Shown here one piece after another: positions 4,671 through 15,354 of a stretch of DNA of 20,000 bases; position 1 is the stretch's first letter, and every line of letters begins with the position of its first letter. The stretch lies in the sequence record SRR31156797_5029; one strand, given 5' to 3'. The notes under the pieces are model-generated. The model did no database searches. It was not told the origin of the DNA and saw only the letters and a program-made list of their open reading frames with translations. Made by a program: the position numbers and the translations under genes.

Positions 4671-5321
4671 TCAGGCTTTTCCTCCAAATGCCAAATCGCC
4701 CGCGTCACCCAGCCCGGGTACAATATAAGCCTGTGCAGTGAGTTCATCGTCGATGGCGCCAACCCATATGGTGACGTCACTACTGGAGATTTTGCTTTTC
4801 AGGTAGTTGATGCCTTCCTGGCTGGCAATGATGGCTGCAAGGTGCGTGTGGTTTGGCTTATTGGTACTGATCAATTCTTTGTAGGCCAGGTGCATTGAGT
4901 AACCGGTTGCCAACATTGGATCGGCCAAAATCAGGTCTTTACCTTCAATTTCGGGTTTGGAAACATATTCGATCTCAACTTCAAAACTGCCATCTTTATG
5001 GTGTTTGCGGTAAGATGAAATAAATGCATTTTCTGATTTGTCGAAAAAATTCAAAAAACCCTGGTGAAAAGGCAATCCTGCTCTGATAATGGTAGAGAGC
5101 ACAGGGTATTTTGAGATTACAGGTACCTCAGCACTGCCTAGTGGGGTAATCACCTCTTTGGATTCATAATCCAGCTTTTTGCTGATTTCGTAGGCGAAAA
5201 TTTCTCCTACCCGCTCCAGGTTGTGTCTGAATAACTGACTGTTATTCTGCGTATTTACATCCCGCAGTTCAGCTATAAACTGGGTCAGCAGCGAATTTTC
5301 CTGTCCAAGATTTATGACCAT
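4671..5321 (-). CDS. upp: Uracil phosphoribosyltransferase
   Basis: IIRAGLP, PRPP-binding LADPMLATGYS and YIVPGLGDAGD. Confidence 0.97.
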   Translation of the reverse strand: MVINLGQENSLLTQFIAELRDVNTQNNSQLFRHNLERVGEIFAYEISKKLDYESKEVITPLGSAEVPVISKYPVLSTIIRAGLPFHQGFLNFFDKSENAFISSYRKHHKDGSFEVEIEYVSKPEIEGKDLILADPMLATGYSMHLAYKELISTNKPNHTHLAAIIASQEGINYLKSKISSSDVTIWVGAIDDELTAQAYIVPGLGDAGDLAFGGKA

Positions 5322-5428: not shown

Positions 5429-6364
5429 TTATCCGGTAATCTGCTTTTTTACTTTCAATAACAGCTTAATTGCCGGGTTTAGTTTGCTGTAGTTATAATG
5501 CAGATAATGAACTTCTTCAGCGCCAAAACCCTTGTAAAAACGGGCAAGGTTTTTATCGTTAGAACCTTCAAAATCCAGCGTGAGATGTGAGCCAGCATGT
5601 TTGCGGATGAAATGGTCGATCAGGTAGGGCATAGCTGCTGTTGATTTAGCATGATCGTTTGTGGCGGAGAAATAAAAAATCACCTTGTTGCCGCTGTAAA
5701 CAAAAAATGCGCCGGCACACAATTCGTTCATTTCGTTATATGCGCCAATCACGCTGGCCCTGCGTTTGTATATCATTACATAAATCAACCGCCGTAAAAG
5801 GTCATAATCATGGTCCTTCAGATTTTTAAGGTACTTACCCTTGTTATCCCTGAAGATTTTAATAATGTTTTCCGGTTTTGGATTTTCAACAATATTTAAA
5901 GAAGACTTGTCAGCTTTTTTTAAGTTGCGCTTTAGATTTGTAGAGTAATTTGTGGCAATGCTTTCGTAATTGTTTATCAGGTCAAGTTCATGCGTTTTCC
6001 AGGGTGTAAAATATTTTTTCTGGCCTTTGATGTTATTATGTGTATTCAGGTTGATTTCGATAAACCGGTACTTTTCCGGGATCGTATCAAGAAATTCCTT
6101 AACAAGGCTTTCGGTGAGGTGGACCTGGGAAAAAACACCAAGTTGCTGGGTAAAGTTAGGCTGGAAAAGATAACTGATGCCAAATTTCTTACCAGGTGTA
6201 AGTGGCATAACGGATTGATAATCATCTTCAACCAATGCCTCCCAGCGGTCGTTCACAAGATCGAGATACCACGAAAAAGCATAGATCATCCCATTTAGTG
6301 ATTTGCGGATACACTGATCCCATTTGTCTGTATCAACTTCGCTATGTTTGAGGTGCCTGATCAC
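5429..6364 (-). CDS. FemAB-like / GNAT (Acetyltransf_6-type) family protein
   Basis: IYAFSWYLD, QPNFTQQLG, NLKRNLKKA and LDFEGSN...LARFYKGFGA match the Bacteroidota FemAB-like GNAT pattern. Start refined to GTG 6364 (MIRHLKHSEVD), downstream of a -7 box. Confidence 0.75.
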   Translation of the reverse strand: MIRHLKHSEVDTDKWDQCIRKSLNGMIYAFSWYLDLVNDRWEALVEDDYQSVMPLTPGKKFGISYLFQPNFTQQLGVFSQVHLTESLVKEFLDTIPEKYRFIEINLNTHNNIKGQKKYFTPWKTHELDLINNYESIATNYSTNLKRNLKKADKSSLNIVENPKPENIIKIFRDNKGKYLKNLKDHDYDLLRRLIYVMIYKRRASVIGAYNEMNELCAGAFFVYSGNKVIFYFSATNDHAKSTAAMPYLIDHFIRKHAGSHLTLDFEGSNDKNLARFYKGFGAEEVHYLHYNYSKLNPAIKLLLKVKKQITG

Positions 6365-6381
6365 TGGAATTAAATTTTGGT

Positions 6382-6389
6382 CAAAAGTA
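6382..6389 (-). promoter_or_regulatory. -7 promoter element (TACTTTTG) for the FemAB-like gene
   Basis: Reverse complement of caaaagta, 17 nt upstream of GTG 6364. Confidence 0.6.
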
Positions 6390-6493
6390 CATGAATTTTT
6401 CACGAAGGGTTTTAGCCGGTTAATTTGTGGATCGTAAACGTTCAAAAAGCAATTGATGATGCTTTTTCTTATTTTCGCTGAAAATTTTTATGC

Positions 6494-8819: not shown

Positions 8820-9287
8820 TTAATAACCTGACCCAAGGATTCTCCTATCAAATGGAAATGGCTCTTTATTTACAATTTTAATTTTGTTGAAATCCGGGTG
8901 TCGGGGGTTGATTAAGTAATTGTAATCCCCTTTGGTTACTACTGAAGGGACTTTAAGAATACAGCATTTATTTTCAGAAATAAATTTATCTCCAATTGTT
9001 TGTGTTTGCCTGATATGAGGAAAGCTGTTCCAACCTGTGGGTAGGCTTGAAATTTCTAATTCATAAACCTTTAAGTTATCAGGACAGTTGATCGTGATCA
9101 TCATGTAATCACCAGGCAGAGTAGCAAGGGTAAAATGGACTGCAACTTCGGCCATGGCCAGTGAGCGGTTTGATGCCGTATAAATCATTTCTGTACCCAC
9201 CGAATTCCATCTGGCACCTTTTAATGCAGCACCAAAACCAGAAAGACTGTCAGTATACTTTTGTCTTACCAATCGAAATATCTCCAT
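8820..9287 (-). CDS. RES-domain toxin (MbcT/ParT-like) of a type II TA system
   Basis: SGFGA...GARWN, YTASNRSLAMAE, VPSVV and NYLINPRHPDF supply the R-E-S residues; lies 3 nt downstream of the antitoxin. Confidence 0.93.
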   Translation of the reverse strand: MEIFRLVRQKYTDSLSGFGAALKGARWNSVGTEMIYTASNRSLAMAEVAVHFTLATLPGDYMMITINCPDNLKVYELEISSLPTGWNSFPHIRQTQTIGDKFISENKCCILKVPSVVTKGDYNYLINPRHPDFNKIKIVNKEPFPFDRRILGSGY

Positions 9288-9290
9288 GGC

Positions 9291-9794
9291 TTAAATAAAG
9301 ATGCCGTGTTCAATTCGGGTTAATTCATTAATGACCATTTCTTTGCCGTAGGAATCTTTTAGTAATTCCATAGGTTTAATGTCTCCCAGAGCATAGTTGG
9401 GTGTGTTCAGCCAAAGGTTAAATTTTTCGATCGACTCAAAAATATCTATCCCTACATTGGTGACCTCAGCAATTTCTATAATTTTTTCTGATTGTGTGGA
9501 TTTGAAAATATGTTTTTCTGATTGTTTGTAACGCTGTAATGATTTTAGTGAAATGCCCAGGAACTCCGCCCAATCCGATTCGCTAAATGGCGCTTTAGCC
9601 TGGATTTCCTTAAAAAGCGAATATGGAATACCTTTTCGGATGGCAGCAATGATCATGAGTTTATCAGATAGGAAATTACCGAAAGTGATTGGCTGATGTT
9701 TTTCAAATTGAATGTCTACGAAATCCTGATGCATCAGGAGTGCATTTATCTCTTTGTTTATGTTTTTTGAGGATTTTGTATTCGGTTCTTTCAT
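9291..9794 (-). CDS. Xre/MbcA/ParS (DUF2384) antitoxin
   Basis: IRKGIPY, HTH WAEFLGISLKSLQRY and C-terminal WLNTPNYALGDIKPMELL...G...RIEHG. Start refined to ATG 9794. Confidence 0.92.
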   Translation of the reverse strand: MKEPNTKSSKNINKEINALLMHQDFVDIQFEKHQPITFGNFLSDKLMIIAAIRKGIPYSLFKEIQAKAPFSESDWAEFLGISLKSLQRYKQSEKHIFKSTQSEKIIEIAEVTNVGIDIFESIEKFNLWLNTPNYALGDIKPMELLKDSYGKEMVINELTRIEHGIFI

Positions 9795-9948
9795 GGCCTG
9801 TACATTTGTCTGCAAATAACGGACATTTTTCCAAGAAATCAAAATGTAATTCTGATAGATGTATTATTCCCGCTAAAAATTGAATCTTAATAGTGCGGTA
9901 TGACCAGGATAATTATCAGTTGCAGGAAGCCAATAAATAAGTGGAATG

Positions 9949-11109
9949 TTACCTTAGTACGATCAATTTTTCAACTGCAATAGGTTTATTTTCTGAAATT
10001 AGCTGGACGAAATAAGTACCGTGTTTAATATCTAAAGCATTGAAAGGTAATTCCGATACCCCGTTTTGTAATTCCAATTTTTGAATAAGCTGGCCTGAAA
10101 TGTTTCTGATCTCGATTTCTGATGCGTTATTTACTTTGTTAAACTGAAAGATCGTCTGACCTGAGGTTGGATTTGGTGATATGCCGATTTTTGAAAGTCT
10201 TCTTTGTTTATCTCCAGTTGAACTACTTGCTTGTGGCACTAGTTTAAGCCCCACCGGCCGGTGATCGGAAACATTGCCCTCATACTCCCAAAAACCATTT
10301 TCGAGATAATCGTCAATACGTATGGTCTGGACTTCACTGGCAGGATCCTCAAAATCATCAAACAGCTCATTGGATATCATGATGTGATCCAGGTGTGATG
10401 GCCACGAAGGATAAGACCAATCTGCGGATGACCCTTCGGCAATTTCCAAGTCTGTAAAATCATAGCTGAAAGGATCATTAAAAAATACCTGGAATACATT
10501 GTTTGATTCATCATCGGTAAGTATATCGTTTAAGTCGCCAAGCAGGATCACATTTCGATCATCAAAGTTTTCACGGATGTATTCATCCATCAGCACACAG
10601 GCGTCATACCTCCGGGTTTCTTCGTCCCACGGGTCATCCAAATTCATATACCCATCACCACAACATTTCAGGTGGTTGTTTATCAGCACATAATCCTCGT
10701 CCATAAAGGTAATTTCCAGAACAAGTGGCAAACGAGGAAGCTCGCGGCTGTTACCGGGTAAAATCTGGTAAATGCTGTTCATCTGCACAAACTCCGGATT
10801 GTAAATGTAAGCCAGGTTCAGGTAACCTGTGTTTGTGGAAATACCCTCCCATTCTTCCAGTTCATCTATCATTTCAACAAAATCGGGGTAGTCATCAATT
10901 TCCTGCACGGCGATCACGTCGGCCTCCATGGCCTGGATGATTTCTTTCACATATTCAATGGTTGTTGCACCTTCTTTCGGGAACCATTCGATGTTCCAGG
11001 TTACGATATCCAAAGTTGAGTCAGTTCCAAATTCGAGGTCTTCAAGGTTTTGTGCGCTGAGTGCAAGTGTGATAATTAATCCGAATATTTGCAATAGAAG
11101 ATTTTTCAT
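9949..11109 (-). CDS. Secreted endonuclease/exonuclease/phosphatase (DNase I-like EEP) with a T9SS type A C-terminal sorting domain
   Basis: Signal peptide with a probable Gln at +1. EEP motifs TWNIEWF, AVQEI, HLK, GDLND, LDHI and SDHRPV. CTD motifs ISPNPT, IRNISGQLI, GTYFVQL and KLIV. Confidence 0.9.
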   Translation of the reverse strand: MKNLLLQIFGLIITLALSAQNLEDLEFGTDSTLDIVTWNIEWFPKEGATTIEYVKEIIQAMEADVIAVQEIDDYPDFVEMIDELEEWEGISTNTGYLNLAYIYNPEFVQMNSIYQILPGNSRELPRLPLVLEITFMDEDYVLINNHLKCCGDGYMNLDDPWDEETRRYDACVLMDEYIRENFDDRNVILLGDLNDILTDDESNNVFQVFFNDPFSYDFTDLEIAEGSSADWSYPSWPSHLDHIMISNELFDDFEDPASEVQTIRIDDYLENGFWEYEGNVSDHRPVGLKLVPQASSSTGDKQRRLSKIGISPNPTSGQTIFQFNKVNNASEIEIRNISGQLIQKLELQNGVSELPFNALDIKHGTYFVQLISENKPIAVEKLIVLR

Positions 11110-13547: not shown

Positions 13548-13638
13548 GATTCAAATAATTTTGCTCAAAAATACCAAGATTACGTGATTTTTGATAAGGA
13601 AAACAACTATTTTTACAGTCCATCCTCAACCAGAGCTT

Positions 13639-15354
13639 ATGAAAAAACCGGCAAATTTGATTTATGGGCTTGAGGACAAGCCTCCATTGATTGAAATGAT
13701 TGTTCTTGGTTTACAGCATGTTAGTGTATTTTTTATCTCCATTGTTTTCCCGGTTTTGTTAATTGCGCATATGGGCAATGCAGTTGATGAGCGTTCTGCA
13801 CAAGGGTTTATCAGCCTTTCGATGATAACTGCGGGCGTGGTTACCATCTTGCAATCCTTTCGAAAATCAATAATGGGTTCCGGATATCTGGTTCCTTCTG
13901 TTTGTGGCCCATCCTATTTTTCTGCTTCCATTACGGCTTCTACTATGGGCGGATTTCCACTGCTTTTTGGAATGACCGGTTTTGTTGGATTCGTTGAAGT
14001 GGTTTTCTCGAGGTTTATGGGACGCCTTCGGTTTTTGTTTCCATCCGAGGTTACGGGCGTAATTGTGATGATGGTGGGTGTGGTTATCATTCCTTATACC
14101 ATGAAAAGTTTTGTTGGTATAGGTGTAAATGACAATGTAGTAACTAGTGCAGAAATTGTAACCGGGTTACTAACGCTTGCCCTGATGGTTGGGCTCAATG
14201 TTTTTTCCAAAGGAAAACTAAGGCTTTACAGTGCTTTGTTCGGAATGGTATTTGGCTATCTGTTATCCGCATTGCTGGGTATTTTTGGGGAGGTGCAGTT
14301 GAAACAACTTGGCGAAACTTCCCTGATGGCTATACCACATATCGATGGTTTTGGTTGGGCTTTCGAGCCAACGCTGATCATACCTTTTACCATAGCAACT
14401 TTAAGTTCTACGCTAAAAACTGTTGGTGATATCACCACGGCACAAAAGATCAGCGATGCCGGCTGGACACGGCCAAACATGAAATCCATTTCAGGGGGCA
14501 TTTTTGCTGACGGACTGGGTGGTGTGATCCCGGGGTTGATTGGCGGTTTCGGTCAGTCCACATCTTCTGCTAACGTTGGATTGTCATTGGCAACAGGCGC
14601 AACAACCCGAAAAATTGCCTGGTACATGGGCGGGATGTTGATAGTTCTGGCATTTATGCCCAGGGTGTCGGAAGTTTTTCTGCTTATGCCATTGCCTGTT
14701 ATTGGTGCCACATTGATCTATGCAGCTTCGTTTATGATCATTACCGGCTTACAGATTATCATGTCGCGGATGTTGGATACACGGAAAACCTTTGTTGTGG
14801 GGATTTCGATAATTGCGGGGTTGAGTGTTTATATGCTTGGTGATGTTTACAACGAGGTTCATGATTGGTTCAGGCCTGTCTTCAGTTCATCATTATCCAT
14901 GGCTACGGTTACGGCTATTGTCATGAATTTGATTTTGCGAATAGGCATTCGAAAAAAATTGCAACTGAATTTTTCGCCAGGTGATGACTATTCCACCATG
15001 ATTTTTGAATCCCTTGAAAAGAAAGGTGGAAAATGGGGTGCACGTAAAGAGATCATTTTTAAAGTTGCTGCCGCCATCAATGAATTTATGGAAATTGCCA
15101 GTGTCCCTGGCGTGTTAAAAGATTCCGTGGTTAAGATGAGTGTGACTTTTGATGAGTTGAAGCTTGAAGTGAATATTCATTATGATGGCCAGGAAATCAG
15201 CTTTCCAACAGAACGACCCGGCCCGGATGAATTGCTTGAAAAGAGGGACTCACATTTAATTCTGGCCGGCTATTTGGTAGGCAGGCATGCTGATCGGATA
15301 AGTAAGCATGACAAAGGCATAACCAGGCATATCAAGCTGACTTTTGACCACTAG
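13639..15354 (+). CDS. NCS2/NAT (xanthine/uracil permease family) transporter with a C-terminal soluble extension of about 130 aa
   Basis: YGLEDKPP, TM1 GLQH, LFPSEVTG, GGIFADG, NAT-like ANVGLSLATG and PLPVIGA. Start refined to ATG 13639. Confidence 0.9.
   Translation: MKKPANLIYGLEDKPPLIEMIVLGLQHVSVFFISIVFPVLLIAHMGNAVDERSAQGFISLSMITAGVVTILQSFRKSIMGSGYLVPSVCGPSYFSASITASTMGGFPLLFGMTGFVGFVEVVFSRFMGRLRFLFPSEVTGVIVMMVGVVIIPYTMKSFVGIGVNDNVVTSAEIVTGLLTLALMVGLNVFSKGKLRLYSALFGMVFGYLLSALLGIFGEVQLKQLGETSLMAIPHIDGFGWAFEPTLIIPFTIATLSSTLKTVGDITTAQKISDAGWTRPNMKSISGGIFADGLGGVIPGLIGGFGQSTSSANVGLSLATGATTRKIAWYMGGMLIVLAFMPRVSEVFLLMPLPVIGATLIYAASFMIITGLQIIMSRMLDTRKTFVVGISIIAGLSVYMLGDVYNEVHDWFRPVFSSSLSMATVTAIVMNLILRIGIRKKLQLNFSPGDDYSTMIFESLEKKGGKWGARKEIIFKVAAAINEFMEIASVPGVLKDSVVKMSVTFDELKLEVNIHYDGQEISFPTERPGPDELLEKRDSHLILAGYLVGRHADRISKHDKGITRHIKLTFDH

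Follow-up and report, generated by a model that had tools for sequence, protein, structure and literature searches.

An NCS2/SLC23 permease with a predicted RsbW/SpoIIAB-like C-terminal domain, and the STAS and PP2C genes encoded beside its relatives

Introduction

To our knowledge, partner switching is described almost entirely for the freeing or holding of sigma factors and of a few other soluble regulators. The systems SiaABC-SiaD, SypE/SypA and Rv1364c employ a PP2C phosphatase, an RsbW-type kinase and a STAS-type protein as the switch, and their outputs are a diguanylate cyclase, a regulator of a polysaccharide locus or a sigma factor; the gene clusters described below are similar to such switches with a non-sigma output (SiaABC, for instance). 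The present study deals with a 20,000-nucleotide stretch of DNA from sequence record SRR31156797_5029 (the window, which below means the whole of this stretch), in which one gene encodes an NCS2/SLC23 permease extended at its C-terminus by about 135 residues. Structure prediction and profile comparison indicate that this tail belongs, in diverged form, to the RsbW/SpoIIAB branch of the GHKL superfamily; the gene clusters of most relatives contain STAS or PP2C genes, and the tail may connect the carrier to a partner switch.

The anti-sigma-factor serine kinases RsbW, SpoIIAB and UsfX (HATPase_c_2, PF13581) have in common with the predicted tail the fold and the order of its elements (strand, two helices, hairpin, lid, helix, hairpin), supply its best structural matches (Z 11.9–13.3) and, like the tail, are encoded with STAS and PP2C partners. 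Unlike them, the tail forms the C-terminal part of a transporter. The N-box Asn, the G1 Asp and the GxG of G2 are missing from it, it has WGAR, FDE and terminal F-x-H motifs of its own, and no sigma factor is a regular neighbour. In the kinase-negative UsfX of Mycobacterium tuberculosis and the RsbW1 and RsbW2 of Mycobacterium smegmatis, the binder and the kinase are split; according to the part of PMC7693655 consulted, the UsfX-like RsbW1 of M. smegmatis binds its partners and has no kinase activity, and the separate RsbW2 phosphorylates the STAS protein RsfB. This is a precedent for a non-kinase RsbW-type protein with a separate kinase, and the operons classified here as types B, C and D are laid out in the same manner; UsfX and RsbW1, however, are free proteins that hold a sigma factor, whereas the probable non-kinase copy considered here lies within a membrane transporter.

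The carriers of the SLC26/SulP family are the closest analogue in architecture; they resemble the permease in their 7+7 inverted-repeat architecture (as given in the part of PMC6497670 consulted) and in the possession of a cytoplasmic C-terminal regulatory domain of the partner-switching type. In SLC26/SulP, STAS is a covalent part of the carrier, whereas here the carrier bears an RsbW-like, putative STAS receptor and STAS is a separate phosphorylatable protein. UraA, UapA, XanQ and SVCT1 share PF00860 with the permease; the additional C-terminal residues and a Lys in transmembrane helix (TM) 8 are found only in the latter. A search of the full-text literature, with subscription journals and domain-database notes outside its scope, did not turn up any transporter that bears such an RsbW-like domain, nor any NCS2/SLC23 carrier that takes part in a partner switch, and no mention of this combination was found in the consulted parts of PMC6308229, a classification of NCS2, and PMC8256260, a review of STAS.

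Results

Architecture of the permease and fold of its C-terminal domain

The initial annotation of the window had described about 130 extra soluble residues after the last TM of an NCS2 permease. The open reading frame (ORF) of 587 amino acids (aa) from the TTG codon at 13591 and every peptide quoted in that annotation were found (Table 1), and the extension, 134 residues long, is a soluble α/β domain in the structural model. The true start is probably ATG 13639, which gives a protein of 571 aa, because all eight aligned homologues begin at the position of Met17 (MxxKPxxL; 'MKKPANL' in the window); residue numbers such as Lys276 and E498 follow the 587-aa numbering unless the 571-aa numbering is stated.

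Modelling of the whole protein (predicted local distance difference test, pLDDT, 93.1; predicted template modelling score, pTM, 0.87) shows the gene product as a 7+7 elevator-type NCS2/SLC23 transporter with an RsbW-like tail. In this model, the membrane body runs on past the PF00860 match, with helices up to TM14, to about residue 452 (nucleotide 14946); helix 418–434 is followed by strand 439–445 (571-aa numbering), so that a linker of about four residues separates TM14 from the tail, and the fold proper of the tail begins at its strand 1, about residue 455 (nucleotide 14953). The earlier statement that bacterial NCS2 proteins, where characterised, stop shortly after TM14 agrees with the length of the solved UraA chains (429–437 aa). 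Searches in Pfam and NCBIfam did not reveal any match to the last 134 residues (14950–15351), even at E 10.

AlphaFold2 modelling of the tail, made with an alignment of 150 sequences, yielded a pLDDT of 94.2 and a pTM of 0.87, and the predicted elements follow in the order strand, helix, helix, strand, strand, short helix, helix, strand, strand. A Foldseek search against the PDB gave 21 matches at E ≤ 0.001, where ranks 1–14 of the matches listed were all SpoIIAB, UsfX or RsbW (E 3.9e-7 to 2e-5, TM-score 0.55–0.72), followed by LvrC, the RsbU-RsbW protein Rv1364c and SiaB. An independent structural search of 48,161 chains with VIA-align placed UsfX first (Z 13.3, root-mean-square deviation 2.1, 116 residues), then the RsbW domain of Rv1364c (Z 12.3), SpoIIAB (12.2), RsbW (11.9), LvrC (11.1) and SiaB (10.8), SiaB and Rv1364c being members of the systems named in the Introduction; histidine-kinase CA (ATP-binding) domains came after these six, with a marked drop to Z ≤ 7.9. 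Comparison of the family alignment with 11 genuine HATPase_c_2 domains, drawn from the relatives' own operons, gave an hhalign probability of 92.3% (E 5.4e-7, 129 columns). The only Pfam family matched by the tails of more than one of 49 family members was PF13581 (HATPase_c_2), with weak matches in seven of them (best E 4.3e-4). The RsbW/SpoIIAB-type GHKL fold, which the initial annotation had proposed from the order of the elements, is thus placed first by both structure searches and agrees with the profile comparison, and the tail is homologous to the RsbW-type anti-sigma factors, from which it descends.

Several other matches were found in the searches with the tail. Galectin rows in a phmmer search against PDB sequences (best E 5.3e-5 over about 30 residues) and coiled-coil spike constructs at the top of a profile search were treated as spurious; in the profile search, RsbW appeared at E 0.44, which is not significant. 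The rank-2 cluster in the ESM Atlas has PF13581 on 15% of its members and was taken as a lead only.

Loss of the kinase motifs

The 11 genuine kinases from the operons of the relatives all keep E46, N50, D77, G79, G103 and G105. Pairing of their residues with those of the tail was taken from the hhalign alignment and the column counts from the 150-sequence alignment. The earlier assignment of the N-box helix, the G1 strands, the lid, the G2 helix and the last strand matches the hhalign alignment, and the erosion of the N-box Asn, the G1 Asp and the GxG glycines holds column by column (Table 1). The commonest residues in the column of the Mg-binding Asn50 are A (47), S (29) and T (21 of 150), and the window has I502; the G2-equivalent helix keeps G560 (111/148) and D568 (123/148), the latter equivalent to D114 of the kinases. 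This pattern is identical across all operon types. The tail is probably a non-catalytic pseudokinase, judging from its sequence, because the Asn and the Asp are lost and Gln replaces Glu in about a quarter of the sequences.

It is decidedly improbable that the tail is, instead, an active atypical serine kinase for the neighbouring STAS protein, which would make the transporter-kinase the RsbW of the module, perhaps gated by transport. The conserved Glu of the kinases is kept as E in 108 of 150 sequences, and the acidic E498 and E501 line the former N-box helix, as such a kinase might have it; against this, the Mg-binding Asn is changed to A, S or T, the adenine-binding Asp to Tyr (137/150), the GxG of the lid is gone and the 'catalytic' Glu is itself Gln in 34 of 150 sequences, while the genuine kinases of the same operons keep all of these residues.

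Gene neighbourhoods of the relatives

Fifty-one loci were obtained in a scan of one genome per prokaryotic species with two peptide patterns from a 9-sequence alignment, which bias these loci to one part of the family. The bacterial loci include those of Syntrophales, Smithella, Geobacteraceae, Syntrophorhabdaceae, Sporomusa, Pelotomaculum, Dehalococcoidales, Verrucomicrobiota, Cloacimonadota, Armatimonadota, Bacteroidales, Ignavibacteriales, Leptospiraceae and Hydrogenophilales, and the archaeal loci include those of Methanothrix, Methanoculleus and Methanophagales. A permease with the tail is encoded in all 51 loci; the gene is frameshifted in three (L032, L038 and L050), and the permease-plus-tail genes of L004, L028 and L048 are normal. 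The contig names of the three frameshifted loci suggest long-read assemblies, and the frameshifts may be assembly errors rather than marks of pseudogenes.

Clustering of the neighbouring ORFs revealed two recurrent families, identified with Pfam as sensor PP2C phosphatases and STAS proteins of about 110 aa. The phosphatases have the architecture dCache_2 (often with HAMP)-SpoIIE or 5TM-5TMR_LYT-SpoIIE. A Pfam tally of 49 loci, covering 203 neighbour ORFs between positions −2 and +3, counted 27 loci with SpoIIE, 25 with STAS and 11 with genuine HATPase_c_2. This genuine kinase forms the end of a fusion with the phosphatase in L021, L022, L025, L030, L041, L042 and L045, is a separate gene product of about 140 aa in L029, L035 and L051, and is joined to a GNAT domain in L006. 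Local hidden Markov models (HMMs) applied to the called ORFs gave PP2C in 28 loci, STAS in 26, both in 22 and a kinase in 14 (two of them small fragments), and six-frame scans with the local HMMs gave STAS in 33, PP2C in 31, either of them in 35 and an RsbW-type kinase in 16 of the 51. All these counts are lower bounds, because several loci end at a contig edge beside the permease gene.

The same six-frame scans did not reveal any STAS, PP2C or kinase match in the neighbourhoods (4–17 kb) of 14 NCS2 relatives that lack the tail domain, are 35–38% identical over the membrane part and come from a 401-genome sample of one phylum. The difference in STAS/PP2C adjacency, 35/51 against 0/14, corresponds to a Fisher p of 2.4e-6, though the 51 loci are mutually related and not phylogenetically independent and all 14 controls belong to one phylum, which weakens the case for a functional connection. 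Two further tail-bearing genes were found in the 401-genome sample: one (L074) has STAS and kinase genes directly upstream and a PP2C gene further upstream, and the other (L075) has no STAS, PP2C or kinase match. The coupling to partner genes that the initial annotation had suspected is therefore seen for STAS and PP2C near most of the relatives and not in the window; its suggested connection to sigma genes is not supported, as these are no regular neighbours. Sigma-70/ECF (extracytoplasmic function)-type genes lie just downstream of the permease only at L013 (8982–9563) and L023 (9326–9952), both from Bacillota and both without a PP2C gene. L023 also contains an Hpt gene and encodes a 438-aa STAS protein.

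The order of the genes varies between lineages: permease, phosphatase, STAS; permease, phosphatase-kinase, STAS; STAS, phosphatase, kinase, permease; and permease, STAS, phosphatase, kinase. The persistence of the association despite these different orders speaks for a functional connection and not for mere inheritance of synteny. In type B, the fusions of phosphatase and kinase presumably resemble Rv1364c and SypE in architecture. All 24 aligned STAS neighbours keep D21, S54, S55, G57 and R59, and with them an SS.G.R loop that we take to be the site of the phosphorylated serine in SpoIIAA and RsbV; in this respect the partners appear functional.

The type-A operon, consisting of the genes for the permease, a Cache-SpoIIE phosphatase and STAS, is complete in six loci (L001, L010, L011, L014, L024 and L031). 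These six operons hold a PP2C phosphatase and a phosphorylatable STAS protein with no canonical kinase within about 8 kb, which leaves room for the tail as the kinase and is the principal argument for that view. On the other side, all five type-A genomes searched contain canonical kinases elsewhere, with full-length PF13581 matches (E 7e-16 to 1e-30).

Other features of the clusters include tandem tail-bearing NCS2 paralogues in L020, L021, L034 and L040; in L038, one frameshifted gene was called as two ORFs. Longer STAS-domain proteins are encoded in the clusters of L036 (2639–3853), L039 (2639–3853), L034, L038 and L040 (2027–4159). Some of them have about 404 aa with STAS at the N-terminal end and no assignment for the rest, and one ORF of 710 aa has NHase_alpha, STAS and PALP matches.

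Distribution and conservation of the tail

A search with residues 448–587 found eight proteins, all of about 569 aa with PF00860, which cover 100% of the tail (E 2e-24 to 8e-17). Exhaustive phmmer searching of 1.84 billion cluster representatives (clusters at 50% identity) yielded 376 representatives at E ≤ 0.001, of which 144 reach E ≤ 1e-10, and most of the matched proteins have about 570 aa with the match at their C-terminal end; the extension is thus conserved among homologues, as the initial annotation had required of a genuine domain. Among longer proteins, a profile search in which the best 8000 candidates were scored gave at least 1369 clusters (90% identity) at E ≤ 1e-5, and PF00860 was the sole Pfam domain in all 120 matches listed. 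The source names of the listed members, where given, are xanthine permease, NCS2 symporter, purine/pyrimidine permease or solute carrier family 23 protein. The 401-genome sample, which represents the phylum of L027, contains no close relative, the best match being 53% identical, and full-length matches including the tail occur in only three genomes.

In the 150-sequence alignment, the most conserved positions of the tail are G479, W482-G-A-R485, E498, E501, F520-D-E522, Y531, G533, P543, L558-A/S-G560, A567-D568, F585 and the C-terminal H587. The window protein keeps every family-conserved tail residue examined.

The tail domain also occurs on other proteins, each of them a single metagenomic gene call: P0105, an AMP-binding (acyl-CoA synthetase-like) enzyme, ends with it, in P0097 it follows a receiver domain, and in P0144 it precedes a Usp domain. 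Its occurrence on such proteins, as far as their sequences tell, suggests a portable regulatory module. Candidates for a stand-alone tail domain gave no convincing case, the short matches being mostly fragments on contigs of about 1 kb; the 116-aa ORF of L032 is part of a frameshifted permease gene and not a stand-alone domain.

The membrane part and its substrate

The closest matches by sequence among solved structures are SVCT1 (E 8.9e-14), UapA and UraA. The protein passes the NCBIfam model NF037981 (NCS2_1; 49.1 bits, cut-off 40) and remains below the cut-offs of TIGR00801 (NCS2 superfamily; 183.9 against 291.8) and TIGR03173 (xanthine permease; 236.5 against 414.15). It thus appears to be a permease of this fold family and no equivalog of a known permease, with an uncertain substrate.

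The TM8 Glu that binds the substrate is, as we take it, E356 in UapA, E272 in XanQ and E241 in UraA. In alignments with SVCT1 and UapA, the permease has Lys276 in place of this Glu; in 69 family members the column is occupied most often by K (44), followed by D (6), R (4) and S (4), and Glu is not among these four. The TM10 signature of NCS2/NAT proteins is presumably [Q/E/P]-N-x-G-x-x-x-x-T-[R/K/G]; the corresponding segment of the window, A-N-V-G-L-S-L-A-T-G, keeps the N-x-G core and T-G but begins with Ala, and its motif SSANVG is similar to SSPNIG of SVCT1. The column of the TM10 Asn contains N in 31 and S in 24 of 69 sequences. The label 'xanthine permease' and a nucleobase specificity seem doubtful, because Lys occupies the place of the substrate-site Glu in TM8. 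An Rfam scan of the window gave no match and so offers no riboswitch hint on the substrate. A uracil phosphoribosyltransferase gene is located at 4671–5321 (−), about 8 kb upstream of the permease gene; being so distant and on the opposite strand, it does not argue for a pyrimidine substrate.

The replacement of the TM8 Glu would also fit a changed or sensing role, in which the permease acts as a transceptor with a reverse flow of information: substrate binding or the conformation of the permease would set the sequestration of STAS by the tail and so inform another target of STAS or of the kinase. Such a transceptor would draw on the same structural and neighbourhood evidence as the control of a carrier by STAS, and ECF-type sigma genes adjoin the permease in L013 and L023. 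We consider it unlikely, since neighbour clustering revealed no recurrent extra output gene (sigma factor, cyclase or similar), the sensor domains of the phosphatases (dCache_2 and 5TMR-LYT) already provide an input, and the TM8 Lys is also present in four of five domain-less Bacteroidota relatives examined (L056–L059).

The window and its other genes

In the window, the permease gene stands alone. A DUF4342 gene and a CYTH gene lie upstream and are divergent, and uvrC lies downstream and is convergent, the 3' ends of uvrC and the permease gene overlapping by 23 bases (15332–15354). A RES-domain toxin (155 aa) adjoins an Xre/MbcA/ParS-type antitoxin (183 aa) at 8820–9842 (−), forming a RES-Xre toxin-antitoxin pair. 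The gene at 9949–11109 (−) encodes a secreted Exo_endo_phos nuclease/phosphatase; its sorting domain, Por_Secre_tail (type IX secretion), points to a Bacteroidota origin of the window. The ORFs 5429–6445 (−; 338 aa) and 1969–2343 (−; 124 aa) have no Pfam match at E ≤ 0.001.

Table 1. Coordinates of the permease gene and of the features of its product in the window
Feature	Position	Strand	Remarks
Whole ORF, NCS2/SLC23 permease with C-terminal domain	13591..15354	+	PF00860 match; probable start ATG 13639, giving 571 aa
Xan_ur_permease (PF00860)	13696..14832	+	Residues 36–414; E 2.7e-48; 165 bits, cut-off 27
Lys276, TM8	14416..14418	+	At the substrate-site Glu position of SVCT1 ('IIESIGD') and UapA ('CECIGD') in alignments
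C-terminal RsbW/SpoIIAB-like GHKL domain as modelled	14926..15351	+	Residues 446–587; AlphaFold2, structure searches, hhalign
WGAR motif W482-G-A-R485, family-specific	15034..15045	+	Loop between helices 1 and 2; W 143/147, G 133/147, A 126/147, R 140/147
N-box-equivalent helix	15046..15099	+	E498 = kinase Glu46, kept (E 108, Q 34 of 150); I502 = Mg-binding Asn50, lost
G1-equivalent strand end	15160..15189	+	Y531 for adenine-binding Asp77 (Y 137/150); G533 = G79, kept in 149/150
Lid-equivalent segment PTERPGPDELLE	15205..15240	+	P543 conserved in 142/150
G2-equivalent helix LAGYLVGRHADRI	15262..15300	+	Kinase G103-x-G105 = I557, A559; motif lost
Last strand and C-terminal end F585-x-H587	15328..15351	+	F 126/149; terminal His 130/148

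Discussion

The architecture seen by the initial annotation is confirmed and its interpretation supported, and the operon evidence extends it. In our judgement, the clusters of the relatives probably encode a partner switch that acts on the transporter itself as its output, where STAS would dock in trans on the pseudokinase tail. A signal at the Cache or 5TMR-LYT sensor would set the phosphatase, and this membrane sensor phosphatase (dCache_2(+HAMP)-SpoIIE or 5TMR-LYT-SpoIIE) would dephosphorylate the STAS protein. Unphosphorylated STAS, an antagonist of the RsbV/SpoIIAA type, might then leave the true kinase, bind the tail of the transporter and alter transport, and a genuine RsbW-type kinase, either fused to the phosphatase, encoded separately in the cluster or located elsewhere in the genome, would re-phosphorylate STAS and reset the switch. 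The transporter would thus take the place of the sigma factor as the partner-switch output. We infer the STAS binding, the lack of kinase activity, and the effect on transport with its direction from the fold, the motifs and the gene neighbourhoods.

Apart from the relatedness of the loci and the kinase-less type-A operons, several observations weigh against such a switch. The tail of the window protein does not match PF13581 at E ≤ 10, so no Pfam threshold is reached; the N-box Glu conserved in kinases is retained in the tail (as E or Q); no STAS, SpoIIE or HATPase_c_2 gene is present in the 20-kb window; and six-frame scans of 16 of the 51 loci, some of them cut at contig ends, gave no STAS or PP2C match, so that about a third of the relatives' loci are, like the window, without partner genes. 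The window protein likely has the same role only if its partners are encoded elsewhere in its genome.

The missing partner genes would also agree with a tail that has nothing to do with STAS in this organism and serves as a structural or dimerising foot, or as a small-molecule regulatory domain that reuses the ATP pocket, the operon association being secondary. The WGAR, FDE and C-terminal F-x-H motifs, conserved in the family and absent from the kinases, may indicate a role specific to the tail. In NCS2 carriers, dimers form through the gate domain, which ends in TM14. Since RsbW-type proteins are homodimers, according to the part of PMC7693655 consulted, two tails could, by analogy, pair beneath the carrier dimer. 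The STAS/PP2C adjacency, found in 35/51 loci and in none of the 14 controls and shared by unrelated lineages with differing gene orders, and the presence of the domain on AMP-binding enzyme, receiver and Usp proteins, which fits a regulatory module and not a structural foot, make a role apart from STAS quite unlikely.

A broader proposal, which we put forward tentatively and would not be surprised to see fail, is that the control of a transporter by STAS represents a class of partner switch that is widespread among bacteria and methanogenic archaea and has gone undescribed: the output would be a transporter, a free phospho-regulated STAS protein would dock on the RsbW-derived pseudokinase of a 7+7 elevator carrier, and the same module, being portable, would receive STAS on further proteins as well (AMP-binding enzyme, receiver, Usp).

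The family would extend partner switching to the direct post-translational control of a membrane carrier. The database names of its members overlook both the tail and the missing substrate-site Glu. The arrangement would be the reciprocal of that in SLC26/SulP, with the carrier bearing the STAS receptor, and it makes the role of STAS domains on 7+7 transporters testable; if the proposal is true, the 'carrier plus STAS' assembly that is permanent in SLC26/SulP would be made here on demand, and the long-noted occurrence of STAS both in anion transporters and in anti-sigma antagonists would gain a mechanistic and evolutionary bridge. Among the organisms that have these carriers are anaerobes with a syntrophic or methanogenic way of life (Syntrophales, Smithella, Pelotomaculum, Methanothrix, Cloacimonadota), and little is known of their uptake systems.

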